Positions 1 to 8,554 of a DNA stretch of 64,000 nt are shown here, piece after piece. The stretch's first letter is position 1. Each line of letters begins with the position of its first letter. The translations under genes and the position numbers were made by a program. The notes beneath the pieces were generated by a model. The model had not been told where the DNA came from. It saw nothing but the letters and a program-made list of their open reading frames with translations, and made no database searches. The DNA comes from an uncultured bacterium. Its GTDB lineage: Bacteria; Babelota; Babeliae; Babelales; Babelaceae. Location: positions 32,001-96,000 of the forward strand of contig CAWKFG010000005.1 of assembly GCA_963848965.1 (NCBI GenBank), given 5' to 3'.

Positions 1-1058
1 CTTGTAACAAGATCGCTTGGTAATTCATGTCGTGCTAAAAACTTTTCTACCTTGTCTTGTGTATGAACAATATCATGATAAAGGTTATTTTTATTGTCTT
101 GAGGAGCTTCTTCTTGTCGTATATAGAGTCTGACACGCCCTAAAGGTACTTCAAATGCTCGTTCAAAAAAGGTTTGGGTAAGTTGTGAAAGCTCTTTGAG
201 CGATGTTACATAGCTCAGCTGTTCTAAAATGTCCTTAAAATCAATGATAAAATTAAACCTCTCTTTTGATTCTACATGGTTTTTCAAGTTTAAGAAACGA
301 AGGCCTATCGTTCTTCTGATAGAGTAATATATTGCAATATTTGTAAGCAATTCTCGTCCTAATGTAATTACTCGCCGATCAAGCAAAAACCACGTGTGAA
401 GATACGAAAGAAAATACGTAAAGTTAGCAATTTCTATAAGAAGAAGAGGTATAAGAAAACACCGTATTACTATCTTTAATTGACTTGAAAGAATAGAAGG
501 AAGTATACCTTGCTTAATCTTATAAAAAATTTGATATACTGCTGAAAGTAAAAGAGGGATAAGATAGAACTTACTCATCTGGATCACAGTGCTTTCAGAA
601 GGAATATCTACCATTTCATATCTAAATGCAGCTGTAAATGCATAATAACCACAAAATAAACTACTTATAACAAAAAATAGATAATCACCCACATCTAAAG
701 TAAAATCTTTTTTCGCTAAATTCTTTATAAAAAGTGTAAGAGCATAATAACGTACTATAAAGAAAAACCAAGCAATACGACCTGCAAAAGCAATAAAATT
801 TACCGAATAGCTAAGGCCAAAGACATATTTAGACAAACGAATGATCCATGATACATCATGTACAAGAAAACCAACAATAATAAGAGCAAATAAAAGTATT
901 AGCTTTTTTGAAATATAGTTTGTATGAAAACTTTTACTTAACAAAAAGGTAAAAAGACCTAGCTTAAAAAGAAAAGAAACGTAGGTCAGGAACAAAAAAA
1001 ATGACGGAGCCGTTACTACATCATAAAAATTATTGATAAATTGAATAATGTACAACAT
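1..1058 (-). CDS. Multi-pass membrane protein, N-terminal part only (runs off the window); probable membrane-anchored sensor/regulator
   Basis: Not in ORF track. ATG at 1058 preceded by AGGAGAG. Hand translation of sampled stretches: MLYIIQFINNFYDVVTAPSFFLFLTYVSFLFKLGLF...GRIAWFFFIVRYYALTLFIK...GLRFLNLKNHVESKERFNFIIDFKDILEQLSYVTSLKELSQLTQTFFERAF. Several hydrophobic helices precede a soluble region. From memory it resembles Dependentiae sigma54-interacting regulators (not verified). Confidence 0.7.
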   Translation of the reverse strand, partial: MLYIIQFINNFYDVVTAPSFFLFLTYVSFLFKLGLFTFLLSKSFHTNYISKKLILLFALIIVGFLVHDVSWIIRLSKYVFGLSYSVNFIAFAGRIAWFFFIVRYYALTLFIKNLAKKDFTLDVGDYLFFVISSLFCGYYAFTAAFRYEMVDIPSESTVIQMSKFYLIPLLLSAVYQIFYKIKQGILPSILSSQLKIVIRCFLIPLLLIEIANFTYFLSYLHTWFLLDRRVITLGRELLTNIAIYYSIRRTIGLRFLNLKNHVESKERFNFIIDFKDILEQLSYVTSLKELSQLTQTFFERAFEVPLGRVRLYIRQEEAPQDNKNNLYHDIVHTQDKVEKFLARHELPSDLVT

Positions 1059-1162
1059 GATTATTGACTTTCTCTCCTAAGTCACATATATTAGTTGTTA
1101 AGTCATCATACCATGAATCTGCATAAGTGTATATCTAATTTTTATACTCGAAGGAGTTCTCT

Positions 1163-1339
1163 ATGCACAGCATCACTTTAAAGCTTAAAGCGGTAGCAGT
1201 GACACTTCTTATTGGTACTTTCTTATCGACATCTTATATGCTTAGTAATACGGCATGTAATAAGATAAAAAAGGAAACACCCTCCACCGAACAGAACAGT
1301 TTTAGAGACGAACCACCTTGGGACGGTTTAGGGTATTAA
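1163..1339 (+). CDS. Small secreted peptide precursor (58 aa)
   Basis: AAGGAG RBS at 1151, ATG 1163, TAA 1337-1339. MHSITLKLKAVAVTLLIGTFLSTSYMLSNTACNKIKKETPSTEQNSFRDEPPWDGLGY. Signal-like N-terminus; own terminator directly downstream. Confidence 0.75.
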   Translation: MHSITLKLKAVAVTLLIGTFLSTSYMLSNTACNKIKKETPSTEQNSFRDEPPWDGLGY

Positions 1340-1347
1340 AAAATGAC

Positions 1348-1381
1348 AAGCTCGTACTCATAAAAAGTACGAGCTTTTTTT
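1348..1381 (+). terminator. Intrinsic terminator
   Basis: AAGCTCGTACT / AGTACGAGCTT stem followed by a T run; lies between the convergent peptide gene and mutY. Confidence 0.8.
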
Positions 1382-1388
1382 ATGTCTA

Positions 1389-2264
1389 TCAAAGTGTGTA
1401 AAGATTCTTTTCTTCCTTTACGAAGCCTTCTTTTATAAGCTCCTGTAAAACTTCATGTATTTCCTGTTCTTCTCGCTTAGTACATTTTACTAATTTCTGA
1501 AACGTTACACATTGAGCTTTTACAAGCTCTTTGATAATCATACCACGAAGCTGACGTCGAGAACCTTCAAACTTTGATTGTATAGTATAATGAGCACTTT
1601 TGCGACTTGGATTCTTAAATTTCTTTTTAAGCATAACACCATAATCCATAAGAGCATAATACCATATACGTGCTTGTTCTCTGTCTACCGTTTGCTCTAT
1701 CAAAGGATATAAAGCTTTATCGCTTACTTCTTGAGCATCTGGAAAGAAGTGATGAATAAATACTGTACGAATATTTGTTTCTATAAATACTGTAGGTTGG
1801 TTAAAAGCAAAAGCACAAATAGATGCTGCTGTAGCAGCGCCAATGCCCTTAAACGTTTGCAATATCTCAGGATCTTGAGGAATAGTACCACTATACTCTG
1901 CAATAATCCTTTGACAAAGTGTATGAAGAGCAAGCGCACGTCGATTGTAACCAAGACCCTGCCAGACTCTCAATACTTCAGCTGCCGAAGCTGCTGCTAA
2001 CTGCTCAATGCTCTTAAATGTAGAAATAAACTGCTCATACTTTTCCTTAACTCGCTCAGTTTGCGTTTGCTGAAGCATAATTTCTGAAACAATAATATGG
2101 TAAGGATTTTGTGTATCACGCCATGCAAATTCTCTTTTATGCTCTCTATAATAAGAATAAATAAGAGTACGAAAATGCTGTATTCCCTCTTGCGCAAGTA
2201 CACCATCTACTAGAAAGTACTGTAAACTGCTAGAAGATAATGAATCTAAAAAACTCATTTGCAT
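1389..2264 (-). CDS. mutY: A/G-specific adenine glycosylase, short MutY-like (HhH-GPD), no Fe-S cluster motif
   Basis: WR-TQNPYHIIVSEIMLQQTQ, WQGLGYNRRA, GIGAATAASICAFAF, ETNIR motifs. Confidence 0.85.
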   Translation of the reverse strand: MQMSFLDSLSSSSLQYFLVDGVLAQEGIQHFRTLIYSYYREHKREFAWRDTQNPYHIIVSEIMLQQTQTERVKEKYEQFISTFKSIEQLAAASAAEVLRVWQGLGYNRRALALHTLCQRIIAEYSGTIPQDPEILQTFKGIGAATAASICAFAFNQPTVFIETNIRTVFIHHFFPDAQEVSDKALYPLIEQTVDREQARIWYYALMDYGVMLKKKFKNPSRKSAHYTIQSKFEGSRRQLRGMIIKELVKAQCVTFQKLVKCTKREEQEIHEVLQELIKEGFVKEEKNLYTL

Positions 2265-2266
2265 GT

Positions 2267-4726
2267 TTACTCACCTGTAGTTTGTCTATTGTTTGCTTGT
2301 TGAGCAGGTTGTCTTGGTGATATTCTAAAGGTATCTCTTTTAAGGTCATCATATGCTATATGAATAACGTCCTCTTCTGGCCTCATCTCAATGCGCCTTA
2401 CTTTTATAGAAGACATATGTTCTGTGCTAGAGACTGCACCAGTATATATATTCCAAAATCTTACTGTTCCATCTTCACTTGCAGAAATGAGAGTTTCATA
2501 TTTGCTATAATACTCTATATGAGTTACCGGTCCTGTATGACCTCCAAATACTCTCAGACATGTGCCATTCTTTCTATCCCAAATGCGGATTGTACCATCA
2601 TCAGAACACGAAGCAAGAGCCCTTATAATCTCAATACCATCATTCAGAGTCAAGAGCTTCATATCATTTACTCTTTTCGTGTGACCTATGAGCGTTTTTC
2701 GTAAAGCACCTTCATCTGTTCCCCACTTATGAATAGTTCCATCTCCTGCCCCTGTAAAAAGAGCAGTAATAGTTTTATCATAGACCATAGACCATACAGG
2801 GTGTGTATGCCCTTTTAAAACAAAACGGCACGCATTTGTCTTCAAATCCCACAGTCGTACAGTACAGTCATCTCCTCCTGATGCTAACATATTATAATCT
2901 TTTAAAAAGCATAACGACCATATATATCCTTTGTGCTCTGCAGGAAGCTTAAACTGCCTTAAACCTCCTTTATTTATCAAAATAAAAGGCCCGTCACCAA
3001 GAAAAATAAGAGCGTCTGATTCAGTAAGTGATTCACATAAAATAGCCGTTACATCTTCTCGTAACGTTAAACTACTGACAGAACTAATATCTGTACCATA
3101 ACGAATAGAAGGACAATGAGACCTTATAAAAGTAGATGGTACTGGCTGTCGTCTAACAGAAGAAGTTTCAGTGGTTGCAGAAATCTGCTCACTCACTGCA
3201 AAACGTTTCCAAACTTGTACTGTATTGTAATCACTGATTACAAAAAGAGTACTTCCATCACTACTTATTTTTATGTGTAACGGTTTGTTTCCTGTAGTTA
3301 CAGGAAACTGCTGTTGTCCTTTTGTAGCAACAACTACAACTTCACCTGAAACATAAGCACACGCTAAGTAGTGTCCGTCATAAGTCCAATCAACACAAGA
3401 AATAATTTCAGATCCATTTTTAACAAGTGGCACAGGCAATGTAGTACATAACTTAAGATTATGAGGGCGGCCTAAAAATACAGAAGCCCCTTGAGGATCT
3501 ATAAAGCTACAAGAAAGAGCATCTTTCTCATGGTTCGAAGCACGCATAATATCAGTACAATCGCCAGATTCTCTATTCCATACTTTTACAGAACCATTTT
3601 TTGTAACACCGTAAATCTTTTTGCTATCAGTACTAAATTGTAGTGCGATAATTGTTCCTATAACAGGTCCTTTCGCTATAGTTTTCATACGGCCTGTTCC
3701 TGTATCCCAACATAATAAGTATTTTGAGCCTTCATGCTCTACGGTAGCTGCAAATAAAGAACAGTCAGCATTAAAGGTACCACACGAAGTATTGGTAACC
3801 CACATTTTTCCTTCTCTCTCCATTTGAAGATGAAAAGGAGCTTCATCAAGCAAGCATACTTTTATAATACCTGTAAGAGTAACTACGAAAAGCTCTTGAT
3901 TTTTTTCATTCCATCCAACTAAAGGGCCATGAGTTCGAGTAAGATAAGGCTTTACTTTATCAGCAAGCTCTTTAATAGCTATACAAGTACCTTGTGCAGT
4001 ATCCCACACATACATATAGTTTGATGAAAGAGAGATAAGACGATTTCCATCAGCAGTACAAAAAACAAACTGTAGTGGTGTCTCGTCTTGATGACCTTCT
4101 AAAGCTGTATGACTCAACGAACTTATACATGACCATTTATAGACCGCAGCATCCACTGATGTTTCTTGTGTTGATACTTCGTTCTTGTCTAGTACAGGCT
4201 CCTTTTTCTTTTTTGGTTTACGCTTTTTTCGAGCACTTTCTTGTGCAAAAACAGCTCCCTTTGCAGATCTTTCTTTTATAAGATTGGTAAGATTACTTGC
4301 AGCACACCCATCTCCCTTGTCTCTTCCCTTATTAAGGTATTCTATTGCTTGCTCTCGTTTACCAAGATGTAAATAAGCTACTGCCAAGTTATTATACAGG
4401 GGAAGGATATCTACCTCACTATAAAAGCGAAGAACCCGTAAAAAATAGCTTTTTGCATCCTTATAACGTTCTTGTTTAAGATACACAAGCCCGAGGGAAT
4501 ATAAAGCATATGCTCGTTTTATACTATCTTTGCTCTCGGTAGCAATTTTATCAAAACATTCTATAGCTTCTTTATACTTTTGTTGTTGAACATACGAGAT
4601 CCCCGCTGTATACAGAGATTCATCTGAAGCTGGCTGTTGCTCTTTTTCCATACCAGTAAGAGCACAAAATCCACCGCTTATTCCTATCAGCAAAAATGTT
4701 TTATAATACAAGCTTTTTATAGTCAT
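2267..4726 (-). CDS. Secreted TPR plus WD40-repeat protein (putative effector)
   Basis: Signal peptide; TPRs (AYALYSLGLVYLKQERYKDA); GH...WD repeats (LASGGDDCTVRLWD, LASCSDDGTIRIWD); basic RKKRKPKKKK segment. Confidence 0.85.
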   Translation of the reverse strand: MTIKSLYYKTFLLIGISGGFCALTGMEKEQQPASDESLYTAGISYVQQQKYKEAIECFDKIATESKDSIKRAYALYSLGLVYLKQERYKDAKSYFLRVLRFYSEVDILPLYNNLAVAYLHLGKREQAIEYLNKGRDKGDGCAASNLTNLIKERSAKGAVFAQESARKKRKPKKKKEPVLDKNEVSTQETSVDAAVYKWSCISSLSHTALEGHQDETPLQFVFCTADGNRLISLSSNYMYVWDTAQGTCIAIKELADKVKPYLTRTHGPLVGWNEKNQELFVVTLTGIIKVCLLDEAPFHLQMEREGKMWVTNTSCGTFNADCSLFAATVEHEGSKYLLCWDTGTGRMKTIAKGPVIGTIIALQFSTDSKKIYGVTKNGSVKVWNRESGDCTDIMRASNHEKDALSCSFIDPQGASVFLGRPHNLKLCTTLPVPLVKNGSEIISCVDWTYDGHYLACAYVSGEVVVVATKGQQQFPVTTGNKPLHIKISSDGSTLFVISDYNTVQVWKRFAVSEQISATTETSSVRRQPVPSTFIRSHCPSIRYGTDISSVSSLTLREDVTAILCESLTESDALIFLGDGPFILINKGGLRQFKLPAEHKGYIWSLCFLKDYNMLASGGDDCTVRLWDLKTNACRFVLKGHTHPVWSMVYDKTITALFTGAGDGTIHKWGTDEGALRKTLIGHTKRVNDMKLLTLNDGIEIIRALASCSDDGTIRIWDRKNGTCLRVFGGHTGPVTHIEYYSKYETLISASEDGTVRFWNIYTGAVSSTEHMSSIKVRRIEMRPEEDVIHIAYDDLKRDTFRISPRQPAQQANNRQTTGE

Positions 4727-4966: not shown

Positions 4967-7603
4967 TTAGACACGACCTGCTCGTATTTTTACAAGTTTG
5001 TCAGTAGAAAGGTATTTTTTTACCGTCTCTTGCATCTGATCAATGGTAATGGAAGTAAGCTGTGAAGCACGGGTATCAAAATAATCTTGTGGAAACTGAA
5101 ATTTATCTTTAAATAATGCAGTAACAGCTATTTGGTGATTAGAGCTAAAATTATCTACCAACGAGTTTATAATAGCTTTTTGTGCTTCCTCAAACTCTTG
5201 TGCTGATACTTCATTAATTGCAGTGTTAATAACATGCGCTATAGCAGCTTCTGCTTCTTTAAGACGATCATTTGAGACGATTGTTCTTACTACGACAAGT
5301 CCTTTTTGCGTATCAACACGAGAAATTAAAGAGCCACCAATTGTGTAAAAGAGCCCTGAACGTTCTCGCAAATCAAATAATCGAGAACTCATTGAGCCTA
5401 AAACACCACCAGTAAAAATTTGATCAAAAAGCAGAAGCTTATCATAATCAGGATCTGTTCTTGTTACCGATAAACCTGCATAAGAAAGAACTGTTTGATC
5501 TCGTATAATGTGGTAATTTATCTCTTGAGGTCGTACCGGCTCTAACTGCGGATAATCAAGATCTACCACTTCCGATCCGGTCCAACGAGAAAGCATGTGT
5601 TCTAAGACTTCTTTAGTTTCATAACGCTCTAAGTCTCCTACTATCGCCAACCGTGCTGCTCGTGGACTTAAATAACGTGTATAAAAATCAAGTAGGTGCT
5701 GCTTCGTAATAGCCTTGACCCCTTCAAAGGTTCCCAGAATATTCTTACTATAAGGATGGTTTTTATATACCTCTTGTCGCGCTAATTGACCGACAAATTG
5801 TGAAGGGCTATCCCAAAACTGCTGTAATTCAGCAATCATCTGCGCTCGTACCTTCTCAATAGAATCTTCTTTAAAGGCTGCTTGTGTAAGAATCTCATTA
5901 AGTAGTTCAAGACCTTTAGGAAGATCTGCAGCCAGTAAGCTTAATGTTACTTGTCCTGAACCAGCTTGTAATGACATACCATAGGATTCAAGCACATCAG
6001 CAAATTCAGATGCTGAGTAATTTTTAGTACCTTCTAAAAGAAGTGATGCAGTAAAAGAGCTCAGTCCCTCTAAACCTTGAGGATCATAATAATGTTTTGC
6101 TTTAAAATCTAAAATAATATCTATTTTAGGAAGCAGTTGATTATTGTAATAAAGCACCTTAAGTCCATTACTTAAATGCCATGTCTGTGATCGAGGGAAT
6201 TCAAATGGTTTTGGTGGTCGAACTTCAATTGAATAAACACACTTACCTTCCTCAATTTCAGTATGTCGTACTTTTCCTTTGAGAATTCGCTCATCTTCCT
6301 CATCAGAAATCTGTTGCAAATGAAGCCAATATGTTTTTTCTTTTTCATGTAAAGGTAATACCTGAGCCATATTCATACCAGAAGAGCGTAAATACGTAGA
6401 AACAAAATCTTTTATCTCTTGTTCAAGATGCTCTTTAGGGTAATCAGTAAAGGTATAGAGAAACTGCTCATTACCAGTAGCTAAATAATATTTACCTATG
6501 TTGTATGCCTGCTTTTGGTTATTTTCAAGCAATGCAAGATAAGAAACTTCAGTTTTTTTAATTGCTCTTGTTACTTCAGCTTCTTCCACCCCTTTATGTG
6601 CTATTGCGTCAAGCTCTTCATGAATAATGGAGAAAATACGATCAATATCTTCGCTCTTTTTTGGCTGGAAGTAGACAAAGAAAACACCATAATCAAAAAG
6701 ATCATAGTTAAAAACATCAAGCTCAGTAACAAGCTGTAGACCATCAACAAGCCGCTTATATAACCTTGAGCCCTTACCAGAGCCTATAATCCAAGAGACT
6801 ACATCAATAAGATAATCTTTTCCTTTACGAGCACCTGGTATAATCCACGCTCCTATAACCATAGGCTGCTTGATATCTCGATAGAGAGTAACAGTGTAGT
6901 TTCGCAAATCAGGTGAATGGTAATACTGTACTGGTTGATACTTTTCATCAGCAGGAATATTACCAAACTCTTTATGAATATTTTTCAGCGCCTCATCAGG
7001 ATCAACATCACCTACAATAACGAGGGTTGCATTATTAGGTACATAGTGATGACGATAGAATGCTACAAGAGCTTCACGCTCTAAGCCCCATAGATCTTGC
7101 TTATAGCCAATAATAGGATGATGATAGGGATGATCATAAAAAATAGCTGAAAGTAGATGCTCAATCATGCTTGAAACATAATCATCCTTATACATTTTGA
7201 GCTCTTGAATAACAGCTTTCAGCTCAGAGTTTAGAAAATCTTGTTTAAATGTGCAATTACGCATACAATCAGCCATGATAGGCAGCGCTTCTTGCCAGTG
7301 TTGTGAAGGAAAGTCAAAGAGATATCCTGTATAATCATATGAAGTAAATGCATTACAGTACCCAGAAAGCTTATGAGTAATAAGGTTAATATCGCATTCT
7401 GAAAGTATTCCTGTACCTTTAAAAATCATGTGTTCAATAAGATGCGCTATCCCTTTTTCTCCACTTTTTTCATCTTTTGATCCTACATTGTACCATAGCT
7501 GAGTTGATACTTTAGGAATAGTTCGTCGTGGTACAATGAGTACTGTCATACCATTAGCTAAAATCTGTTTAAGAACGCGGGGCCGTTGCATACCTATCCT
7601 CAT
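4967..7603 (-). CDS. M16 family zinc peptidase (insulinase/PqqL-like, two fused modules)
   Basis: HLIEH (HxxEH) motif, NAFTS, second inactive M16 half starting LSNGLKV. Confidence 0.9.
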   Translation of the reverse strand: MRIGMQRPRVLKQILANGMTVLIVPRRTIPKVSTQLWYNVGSKDEKSGEKGIAHLIEHMIFKGTGILSECDINLITHKLSGYCNAFTSYDYTGYLFDFPSQHWQEALPIMADCMRNCTFKQDFLNSELKAVIQELKMYKDDYVSSMIEHLLSAIFYDHPYHHPIIGYKQDLWGLEREALVAFYRHHYVPNNATLVIVGDVDPDEALKNIHKEFGNIPADEKYQPVQYYHSPDLRNYTVTLYRDIKQPMVIGAWIIPGARKGKDYLIDVVSWIIGSGKGSRLYKRLVDGLQLVTELDVFNYDLFDYGVFFVYFQPKKSEDIDRIFSIIHEELDAIAHKGVEEAEVTRAIKKTEVSYLALLENNQKQAYNIGKYYLATGNEQFLYTFTDYPKEHLEQEIKDFVSTYLRSSGMNMAQVLPLHEKEKTYWLHLQQISDEEDERILKGKVRHTEIEEGKCVYSIEVRPPKPFEFPRSQTWHLSNGLKVLYYNNQLLPKIDIILDFKAKHYYDPQGLEGLSSFTASLLLEGTKNYSASEFADVLESYGMSLQAGSGQVTLSLLAADLPKGLELLNEILTQAAFKEDSIEKVRAQMIAELQQFWDSPSQFVGQLARQEVYKNHPYSKNILGTFEGVKAITKQHLLDFYTRYLSPRAARLAIVGDLERYETKEVLEHMLSRWTGSEVVDLDYPQLEPVRPQEINYHIIRDQTVLSYAGLSVTRTDPDYDKLLLFDQIFTGGVLGSMSSRLFDLRERSGLFYTIGGSLISRVDTQKGLVVVRTIVSNDRLKEAEAAIAHVINTAINEVSAQEFEEAQKAIINSLVDNFSSNHQIAVTALFKDKFQFPQDYFDTRASQLTSITIDQMQETVKKYLSTDKLVKIRAGRV

Positions 7604-7663: not shown

Positions 7664-8554
7664 TTATACAATTCTTTTAAGGCTGCGTGCTATCGCAACT
7701 GCTTTAAGAGCACTGAGCTCTTTATCCTTGATCTCAAGCATAATATCAAAGTCAAGTTCTTTTGTCGCTTCTAAAAAAGCTTTAAAGTGCTCTTCATTAA
7801 TAGTTTGAACATGTTTGCCCACCCTGTTACCAGGAGCTTGGCTACTATAATCGATCATGCCACTACCATCATGCACATTCCATGTCCCCAGCGCCAATTG
7901 TAACGCCTCTACAAGCGGCTCGCCATTATGTAAACACTCATGATGTAGAGTGTCAAAAAGTATAGGTATTCCTGTATGTTCGTGCAAAAAAAGGCAGTCT
8001 TTTAATGAATATGATCGCTCATCATTTTCAAGAACAAGTCTGCGTTTTACTTTATCACTCAAGGTATGATACGTAGAGATAAATCTTTTAAGAGCTTCCT
8101 CTTTATTGCCATAGACACCTCCACCATGAATTTGCATCTTTGCAGAGGTATCTAGTCCTAGGCTATCTAAAACAGTTGCATGATATTCAAGCTCTCGTAT
8201 ACTGTTTTGCACTATTGTAGAATCTGGTGAATTAATAACCACAAACTGATCAGGATGCATAGAAATCCGCAAGTTATGCTTTTTAATATAGTCACCAAGA
8301 GCAGCAAATTTAGGAGCAAAAAATTTTACCCAATCAAAATCAATAACCGAATGAGAAGCAAATGGCACTAAACAAGAACTTATTCTAAAAAAAAGTAATC
8401 CCATCTTTACATTGTATTCTAAAATTTGCTGCAGTGCATCCAGATTAGCATGTACTGTAGACACAAGTCGTGCAGAAGAATAGGAGCTTAACCGAAATGT
8501 TCGATTAGCACAACAGCCAAGTGACGTATTAATGCATGGATATCCAATCTTCAC
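7664..8554 (-). CDS. uvsE: UV DNA damage repair endonuclease UvsE
   Basis: MKIGYPCIN, FFRISS, SMHPDQF, LENDE, FDTLHH, DIMLEIKDKE. Confidence 0.93.
   Translation of the reverse strand: MKIGYPCINTSLGCCANRTFRLSSYSSARLVSTVHANLDALQQILEYNVKMGLLFFRISSCLVPFASHSVIDFDWVKFFAPKFAALGDYIKKHNLRISMHPDQFVVINSPDSTIVQNSIRELEYHATVLDSLGLDTSAKMQIHGGGVYGNKEEALKRFISTYHTLSDKVKRRLVLENDERSYSLKDCLFLHEHTGIPILFDTLHHECLHNGEPLVEALQLALGTWNVHDGSGMIDYSSQAPGNRVGKHVQTINEEHFKAFLEATKELDFDIMLEIKDKELSALKAVAIARSLKRIV

Follow-up and report, generated by a model that had tools for sequence, protein, structure and literature searches.

The phylum Babelota carries a real, phylum-scale peptide-receptor cassette, in which the gene of a small putative pro-peptide lies divergent to the gene of a predicted seven-helix (7TM) membrane receptor fused to a probable transcriptional regulator. 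It came to light in a window of 64,000 nucleotides (G000:C5:32001-96000) of its source genome, G000, which is 88.7% complete. The original prediction took the pair for a pro-peptide pheromone and its cognate membrane receptor. This reading is supported by the pairing of the ORFs, the output module of the receptor, the co-loss, co-relocation and co-duplication of the two genes, and the repeated peptide cores; within it, binding and diffusible signalling are inferred.

The peptide gene and its regulatory signals

The predicted 58-aa ORF was borne out, and so were its AAGGAG ribosome binding site, 6 nt before the ATG, and the 104-bp intergenic region that reaches the divergent receptor ATG at position 1058 (Table 1). 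The gene had been called unannotated; its product indeed has no name or family, and searches of Pfam and NCBIfam with the 58-aa peptide gave no match, but the exact protein was gene-called in one ENA assembly, where it is unnamed and forms a cluster of 1. The C-terminus DEPPWDGLGY, described as distinctive, does end the ORF, but only its Pro-Pro core, and not the whole decapeptide, is kept across the family. When the 330-nt gap was resampled 2000 times by a Markov model, a comparable ORF (40-100 aa, SD of at least 6, a hydrophobic stretch and Pro-Pro) never arose. No paralogue of the peptide was found by tblastn of G000. A scan of the whole genome reported six other small hydrophobic ORFs containing Pro-Pro, none of them beside a receptor. 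Two neighbouring small secreted Pro-rich ORFs on the minus strand (G000:C1:343951 and C1:342787) have strong Shine-Dalgarno (SD) sequences and leaders that are alike, and no receptor adjoins them.

Table 1. Features of the cassette and nearby genes, in window positions.
Feature	Position	Strand	Basis or remark
58-aa pro-peptide gene	1163..1339	+	Basic N-terminus, hydrophobic leader, charged spacer, C-terminal Pro-Pro core; family-wide counterparts
Hydrophobic leader, about residues 7-27, putative Sec signal	1181..1243	+	Sequence; hydropathy peak 2.5
Predicted mature core DEPPWDGLGY, residues 49-58	1307..1336	+	Pro-Pro is the family-conserved element
Shine-Dalgarno AAGGAG of peptide gene	1151..1156	+	Sequence
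Sigma70-type promoter of peptide gene, TTGACT-17-TATATT	1064..1092	+	5 nt from receptor start codon; geometry family-conserved
Candidate promoter of receptor gene, 9/12 match, extended -10	1105..1133	-	Consensus match only
Bidirectional intrinsic terminator	1348..1376	.	Common to peptide gene and convergent MutY-like gene
5′ part (residues 1-352) of 917-aa receptor-regulator	1..1058	-	Gene end at G000:C5:30305, outside the window
Seven-helix membrane sensor domain, residues 18-256	291..1007	-	Predicted fold GPCR/rhodopsin-like
Start of GAF-like cytoplasmic domain	1..248	-	GAF clusters, Atlas score 0.95; a lead without alignment
Convergent HhH-GPD/MutY-like glycosylase gene	1389-2264	-	Shares terminator with peptide gene
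TPR+WD40 secreted protein, presumed	2267-4726	-	Named from motifs
M16-type zinc protease, presumed	4967-7603	-	Named from motifs (HLIEH)
UV-damage-endonuclease-like gene, presumed	7664-8554	-	Named from motifs

A sigma70 promoter precedes the peptide gene in 126 of 133 loci, compared with 320 of 840 control genes. In 67 of these 126 loci its -35 box lies 5-7 nt from the receptor ATG, so that the promoters of peptide and receptor must overlap; in the window the overlapping stretch (1058-1133) is possibly a bidirectional promoter or a point of mutual exclusion. The terminator that had been assigned to the peptide gene as its own is real (two terminators were predicted, versus a mean of 0.1 in shuffles), but it works in both directions, serving the convergent HhH-GPD/MutY-like gene as well, so it is not strictly the peptide's. 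Nor are terminators a feature of the family, as just 25 of 133 peptide genes are followed by a detected one. We found no regulon and no convincing palindrome that could mark an operator in the cassette promoters or in the intergenic DNA of G000, the top dyads being rare GC-rich hairpins, and recognised no dedicated protease or exporter among the adjacent genes of receptor and peptide loci. At several loci of genus g19 (L004, L005, L008-L010, L012, L014 and L041) the peptide genes are further from the receptor, and a GTAGTGG-like element recurs at these loci some 25-35 nt ahead of the SD, preceded by TGTCAA-like words; the element is a candidate operator or alternative promoter.

The receptor and its output module

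The divergent membrane protein continues beyond the window and comprises 917 aa (G000:C5:33058-30305). It is single-copy in G000, and its domains follow the order 7TM, GAF-like, coiled coil, PAS-like, AAA+ of the bacterial enhancer-binding protein (bEBP) type, and helix-turn-helix (HTH). The GAF-like domain was assigned from secondary structure and an Atlas lead, and the PAS-like domain from secondary structure and one weak PAS_8 hit. Searches of the receptor returned no hit to the TPR family and no histidine kinase domain.

AlphaFold2, run with a 148-sequence alignment, predicted seven membrane helices with a pLDDT of 91. The best structural matches of this model in the PDB were GPCRs (Z 16.3 for 8xyd, 235 residues aligned, rmsd 4.5), and rhodopsins reached Z 14.7, at 5-13% identity in the structural alignments. 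Foldseek returned nothing at E<=0.001, GPCR and rhodopsin classes appearing at E 2.7e-3 or weaker. As this E-value is the best obtained and helical bundles can reach Z of about 13-14 by common arrangement without kinship, we say of the modelled domain that it resembles GPCRs and rhodopsins in its seven-helix arrangement, and claim no shared ancestry. GPCR families were absent from the Pfam hits of the 148 members. A microbial rhodopsin was rejected, since none of the near-invariant helix 7 columns in alignment A1 is a lysine. HisKA_7TM (PF16927) matched 0 of 148 members; its clusters were the nearest named look-alikes, with an Atlas feature score of 0.88 that falls below the lead threshold of 0.9.

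The original prediction turned on whether the membrane protein has a signalling output domain, possibly a sigma54-type AAA/HTH end. Extension of the contig revealed both an AAA+ domain (PF00158, E 9e-13) and an HTH, the latter seen in the predicted model and as weak Pfam hits in homologs, but not a working sigma54 activator. The AAA+ domain matches the structures of NtrX and NtrC1 (E 1e-10; NtrX is the best Foldseek hit), the receptor matches a model of TyrR (E 1e-13), and the homologs bear the database name sigma54-interacting regulator. Across 173 full-length receptors, however, each catalytic motif is replaced: Walker A GESGTGK aligns to MPEeDL, GAFTGA to GINPLFG, Walker B FLDE to FIxN, and the arginine finger YYRL to FnEL. 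Sigma54 was not found in G000, and none of 261 genomes of the phylum exceeded the PF04552 cut-off, with two weak hits below it. Because all these motifs are replaced and no sigma54 was found, the output is a sigma54-independent regulator with an ATPase that, as judged from sequence, is presumably dead. The HTH recognition segment NRSSVNRR is almost invariant across the receptors. G000, at its 88.7% completeness, gave no match to the response regulator family PF00072, and its two HATPase_c proteins (817 and 641 aa) are, by their size, presumably GyrB and MutL/HtpG. As G000 shows no two-component system, the receptor may be its main device for passing signals from membrane to transcription.

Distribution of the cassette across Babelota

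Of 261 Babelota genomes, 185 carry the receptor (the TM profile finds it in 184), and the cultured Ca. Babela massiliensis has one (P0212). Record titles of its homologs name Ca. Dependentiae/Babelota, and its profile recovered 408 clusters among 1.84 billion proteins, for which taxonomy was not given. The receptor is missing from several families (f17, 0/35; f5, 0/7; f14, 0/6; f3, 0/3), with one weak hit among 12 genomes in f18, and it is expanded in others, up to nine matches in G014.

For the analysis of gene pairing we took the best-scoring of 311 matches and a hand-picked set from weaker families. These 210 receptor hits comprised 196 distinct ones, of which seven were dropped for too little upstream DNA, leaving 189 that include the window's own locus and one frameshifted gene counted twice. 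A strict rule demanded a divergent ORF, 18-95 aa long and starting with ATG, at a distance of 20-450 nt, in which PP or PxP comes after a hydrophobic stretch. Such ORFs lie beside 138 of the 189 receptors, 127 of them also with an SD. Among other large G000 genes the rule returned 20 of 838 (12 of 474 with free upstream space); six had an SD, one of these being the window's own finding. The 51 receptors that failed the rule include 21 downstream tandem copies, and several failures were near-misses, with a GTG start or with PG for PP. As the rule had been set after inspecting loci L001-L077, it was tested again on held-out metagenome loci (76 hits, minus 14 short ones and 6 duplicates), where 40 of 56 were positive, as were 33 of 39 lead or solo receptors, some of these loci being close kin of earlier ones. 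Thus small ORFs beside homologous receptors, on which the pairing had been staked, do recur.

Anatomy of the peptide family

A relaxed rule called peptides at 146 of 173 loci. Their median length is 34 aa, the stretch between first Pro and C-terminus has a median of 4 residues, and 133 of the 146 contain Pro-Pro. The residues flanking it vary widely; the Pro-Pro core is conserved, and the sequence of the hydrophobic helix is not. Two or more Pro-Pro units occur in 15 of the 146 precursors, several as exact repeats of two to five copies (DDFPPMG three times, LQCPP three times, CPTPP five times), and several loci (L009, L010, L012, L016) have two peptide genes. No more than 8 residues separate the core from the helix in 98 of 133 peptides, which could therefore stay anchored in the membrane. 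The other 35, the window's peptide among them, have longer spacers, and, by an uncontrolled count, 30 of the 35 show a loose signal-peptidase-like site.

Comparison of 21 pairs of peptide genes, some of them poorly aligned, gave a pN/pS of 0.58, with differences commonest at codon position 3, a pattern by which the genes appear to show purifying coding selection. Loci L153-L156 and L159 of family f4 encode basic precursors that are rich in Pro and of greater length (81-104 aa), several of them with WPD, WPG or WPA at the C-terminus; by sequence they form a divergent peptide class.

Joint loss, relocation and duplication of the two genes

Beyond the peptide gene lies nth in 100 of 189 loci, and xerC follows the receptor in 50 of 118. 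In genomes that lack the receptor (40 searched, 32 with nth, yielding 30 loci of which 26 could be scored), an ORF with leader and Pro-Pro upstream of nth was found in 0 of 26, and at these loci (L248-L277) nth mostly faces away from xerC directly. The same holds on contig C1 of G000, where nth and xerC stand back to back, adjacent and without an intervening peptide (G000:C1:311436-313121). Peptide and receptor lie together on C5, away from both, and have thus moved together in this genome; the nth-xerC interval, which houses the cassette in many genomes that have the receptor, looks like its ancestral site. Of the 44 downstream receptors in tandem arrays, 23 have a peptide of their own beside them, and duplicated receptors tend to carry a differing peptide each.

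These neighbourhoods also bear on whether the ORF could be a ribosome-stalling leader (a RAPP-like arrest peptide or a Pro-sensing attenuator) that regulates the gene downstream of it, in most cases nth. Its hydrophobic N-terminus and Pro-Pro near the stop do resemble monitoring substrates, and at 100 of 138 loci the gene that follows shares its strand. However, that gene is convergent in the window and in 30 of the 138, and nth has no such ORF where the receptor is absent or lies elsewhere. Monitoring substrates such as SecM, MifM and ApdA/ApdP have a spacer of more than 30 aa and a RAPP-like motif, and lie upstream of secA, secDF or yidC, according to the available part of PMC10987492. Here the spacer is mostly 8 residues or fewer, RAPP and RGPP are absent from the 146 cores, and the neighbour is nth or a convergent gene. 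We therefore rejected a monitoring-substrate arrest peptide, and regard the arrest-leader reading as largely refuted and extremely improbable.

Covariation of peptide and receptor

By identity to the query receptor, the sensor domain is variable and the output conserved: the mean was 24% for the TM domain, 53% for AAA+ and 68% for the HTH, the cytoplasmic parts spanning 44-68%. With the rest of the receptor controlled for, the similarity of peptide cores correlated with that of the TM domain at a partial r of 0.109 for its outer half and 0.099 for its inner half, against 0.012 for the cytoplasmic part and a permutation maximum of 0.069, all these statistics including a kinship signal. Size-matched sets of cytoplasmic columns reached 0.085 versus the 0.109 of the outer half, and 16 of the top 30 coupled receptor columns are cytoplasmic. 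The covariation proposed as a check on the pair was found in part: the cores follow the TM domain, weakly and with kinship included, without preference for its outer face over its inner one. An early charge-class test, confounded by clade, had pointed to outer-face columns (48 acidic versus 13 basic); this coupling was rejected when the outer face did not stand out in a corrected scan. Covariation thus lends weak support to peptide-receptor specificity.

The peptide could also be a secreted effector or antagonist directed against the host or competitors and controlled by the regulator, with the 7TM domain sensing another, host-derived cue. Regulators are often divergent from their target genes, and the strong sigma70 promoter overlaps the 5′ end of the receptor gene, which fits such control. 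Babelota also secrete many unknown proteins, as the available part of PMC6561590 describes. A fixed host cue, however, would not demand so fast a diversification of the sensor domain, the cores track the TM domain more closely than the output domain, though the signal is weak, and the duplicated receptors tend to have different peptides of their own. We consider an effector quite improbable.

Another reading keeps the small protein in the membrane as a tethered, unreleased partner of the receptor, a ligand or modulator in cis that reports the secretion or envelope state of its own cell and not population density. Small membrane modulators are known, for example MgrB of PhoQ. Tethering would suit the many peptides whose Pro-Pro directly follows the helix and the inner-half covariation, as strong as that of the outer half; co-loss and co-duplication fit it equally well. 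It agrees less with the long-spacer peptides, the window's included, and their loose, uncontrolled cleavage-like sites, or with the conservation of the core and not of the helix, and the tandem core repeats make most sense if the copies are cut out. Taken together, this makes tethering rather unlikely.

Proposed mechanism

Whether diffusible or tethered, the peptide is very probably the ligand or partner of the receptor. We favour a released peptide acting on the 7TM domain, because the anatomy of the precursors matches that of the pro-pheromones of RRNPP systems in the available part of PMC9765709. That binding of a secreted, diffusible peptide to the 7TM domain switches a sigma70-type regulator, in a quorum-sensing-like manner, seems to us reasonably probable, and in this we infer the binding, the processing and the target genes.

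The pro-peptide would be exported by Sec. Long precursors such as the window's would be cut by signal peptidase I and then trimmed; in short ones, signal peptidase or an RseP/Eep-type protease would cleave where the hydrophobic helix ends. Both signal peptidase I and M50 proteases are encoded in G000; they are housekeeping enzymes that may have a role in processing the peptide. A peptide of about 5-10 residues (xxPPxx) would accumulate in the periplasm or the host compartment; given the diderm-like cells described in the available part of PMC6561590, it may not leave the periplasm. Binding to an outer pocket of the 7TM domain would move its helices, and the GAF/coiled-coil/PAS linker would relay this to the AAA+ core, whose ATPase-dead fold would serve as an oligomer scaffold only. 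The HTH would bind one operator common to the phylum and regulate sigma70 promoters, making the whole a one-component peptide system in which the sensor is fused to the DNA-binding regulator. We speculate that the output counts parasites per host cell to time division and lysis.

Comparison with known systems

To our knowledge, nearly all known peptide quorum sensing is that of Gram-positive bacteria and works through kinases or TPR proteins. Searches of the full-text literature outside subscription journals, some of them on the phylum or Babela, returned no description of a peptide-7TM-regulator system. The terms quorum, sigma, regulator and pheromone are absent from the available part of PMC4776705, quorum and peptide are not mentioned in that of PMC12172432, on four isolates, and the portion available of PMC13466386, on GPCR origins, shows no such receptors. 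The one pertinent statement found for the phylum concerns Chromulinavorax destructans, in which quorum-sensing mechanisms are stated to be absent; two membranes are also described (PMC6561590, available part). If true, our reading would place peptide quorum sensing in a diderm-like, obligate intracellular phylum of protist parasites and provide a bacterial GPCR-fold domain with a peptide ligand. Specificity can be tested directly with synthetic 5-10-mers, as over 170 receptor-peptide pairs occur in nature.

One close likeness is to RRNPP systems (Rap/Phr, NprR/NprX, PlcR/PapR, AimR/AimP, Rgg/SHP, ComR/ComS), which also have adjacent propeptide genes, C-terminal and repeated cores, extra propeptide genes and peptide-less receptors (available part of PMC9765709). 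In both, a small propeptide gene adjoins a receptor-regulator, a signal sequence precedes a C-terminal mature peptide, precursors come in long and short hydrophobic types, and the logic is one-component. RRNPP receptors, however, are cytoplasmic TPR proteins of Firmicutes that need re-import of the peptide, whereas the Babelota receptor joins a 7TM membrane sensor to GAF, PAS, AAA+ and HTH domains in diderm-like intracellular parasites.

In AgrC/AIP, ComD/CSP and ComP/ComX, a peptide is sensed outside the cell by a variable polytopic membrane domain, and receptor and peptide diversify together. The Babelota receptor has a similar variable membrane sensor, but it lacks the histidine kinase domain, G000 has no response regulator match, and the output is fused directly; no AgrB, ComQ or ABC exporter was recognised beside the pair. 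As in the atypical enhancer-binding proteins TyrR, NtrX and VpsR, a bEBP-type AAA+ fold and an HTH are used without sigma54. Those proteins are soluble and respond to small molecules or phosphorylation; here Walker A, Walker B and the arginine finger are lost as well, and the input is a 7TM domain. With GPCRs and microbial rhodopsins the sensor shares the seven-helix arrangement (Z 14-16), but at 5-13% identity and with no G protein or conserved helix 7 lysine.

The cassette thus appears to work like peptide quorum sensing and to fall outside RRNPP, Agr/Com and the sigma54 activators, with a receptor architecture that is probably new. We see about an even chance that its receptor represents a third bacterial class beside histidine kinases and RRNPP proteins, one in which a GPCR-fold 7TM domain binds a gene-encoded Pro-Pro peptide hormone and is coupled straight to a transcription factor; this diderm phylum of obligate intracellular parasites would then have lineage-specific peptide dialects for counting kin inside a host cell and timing a developmental switch.
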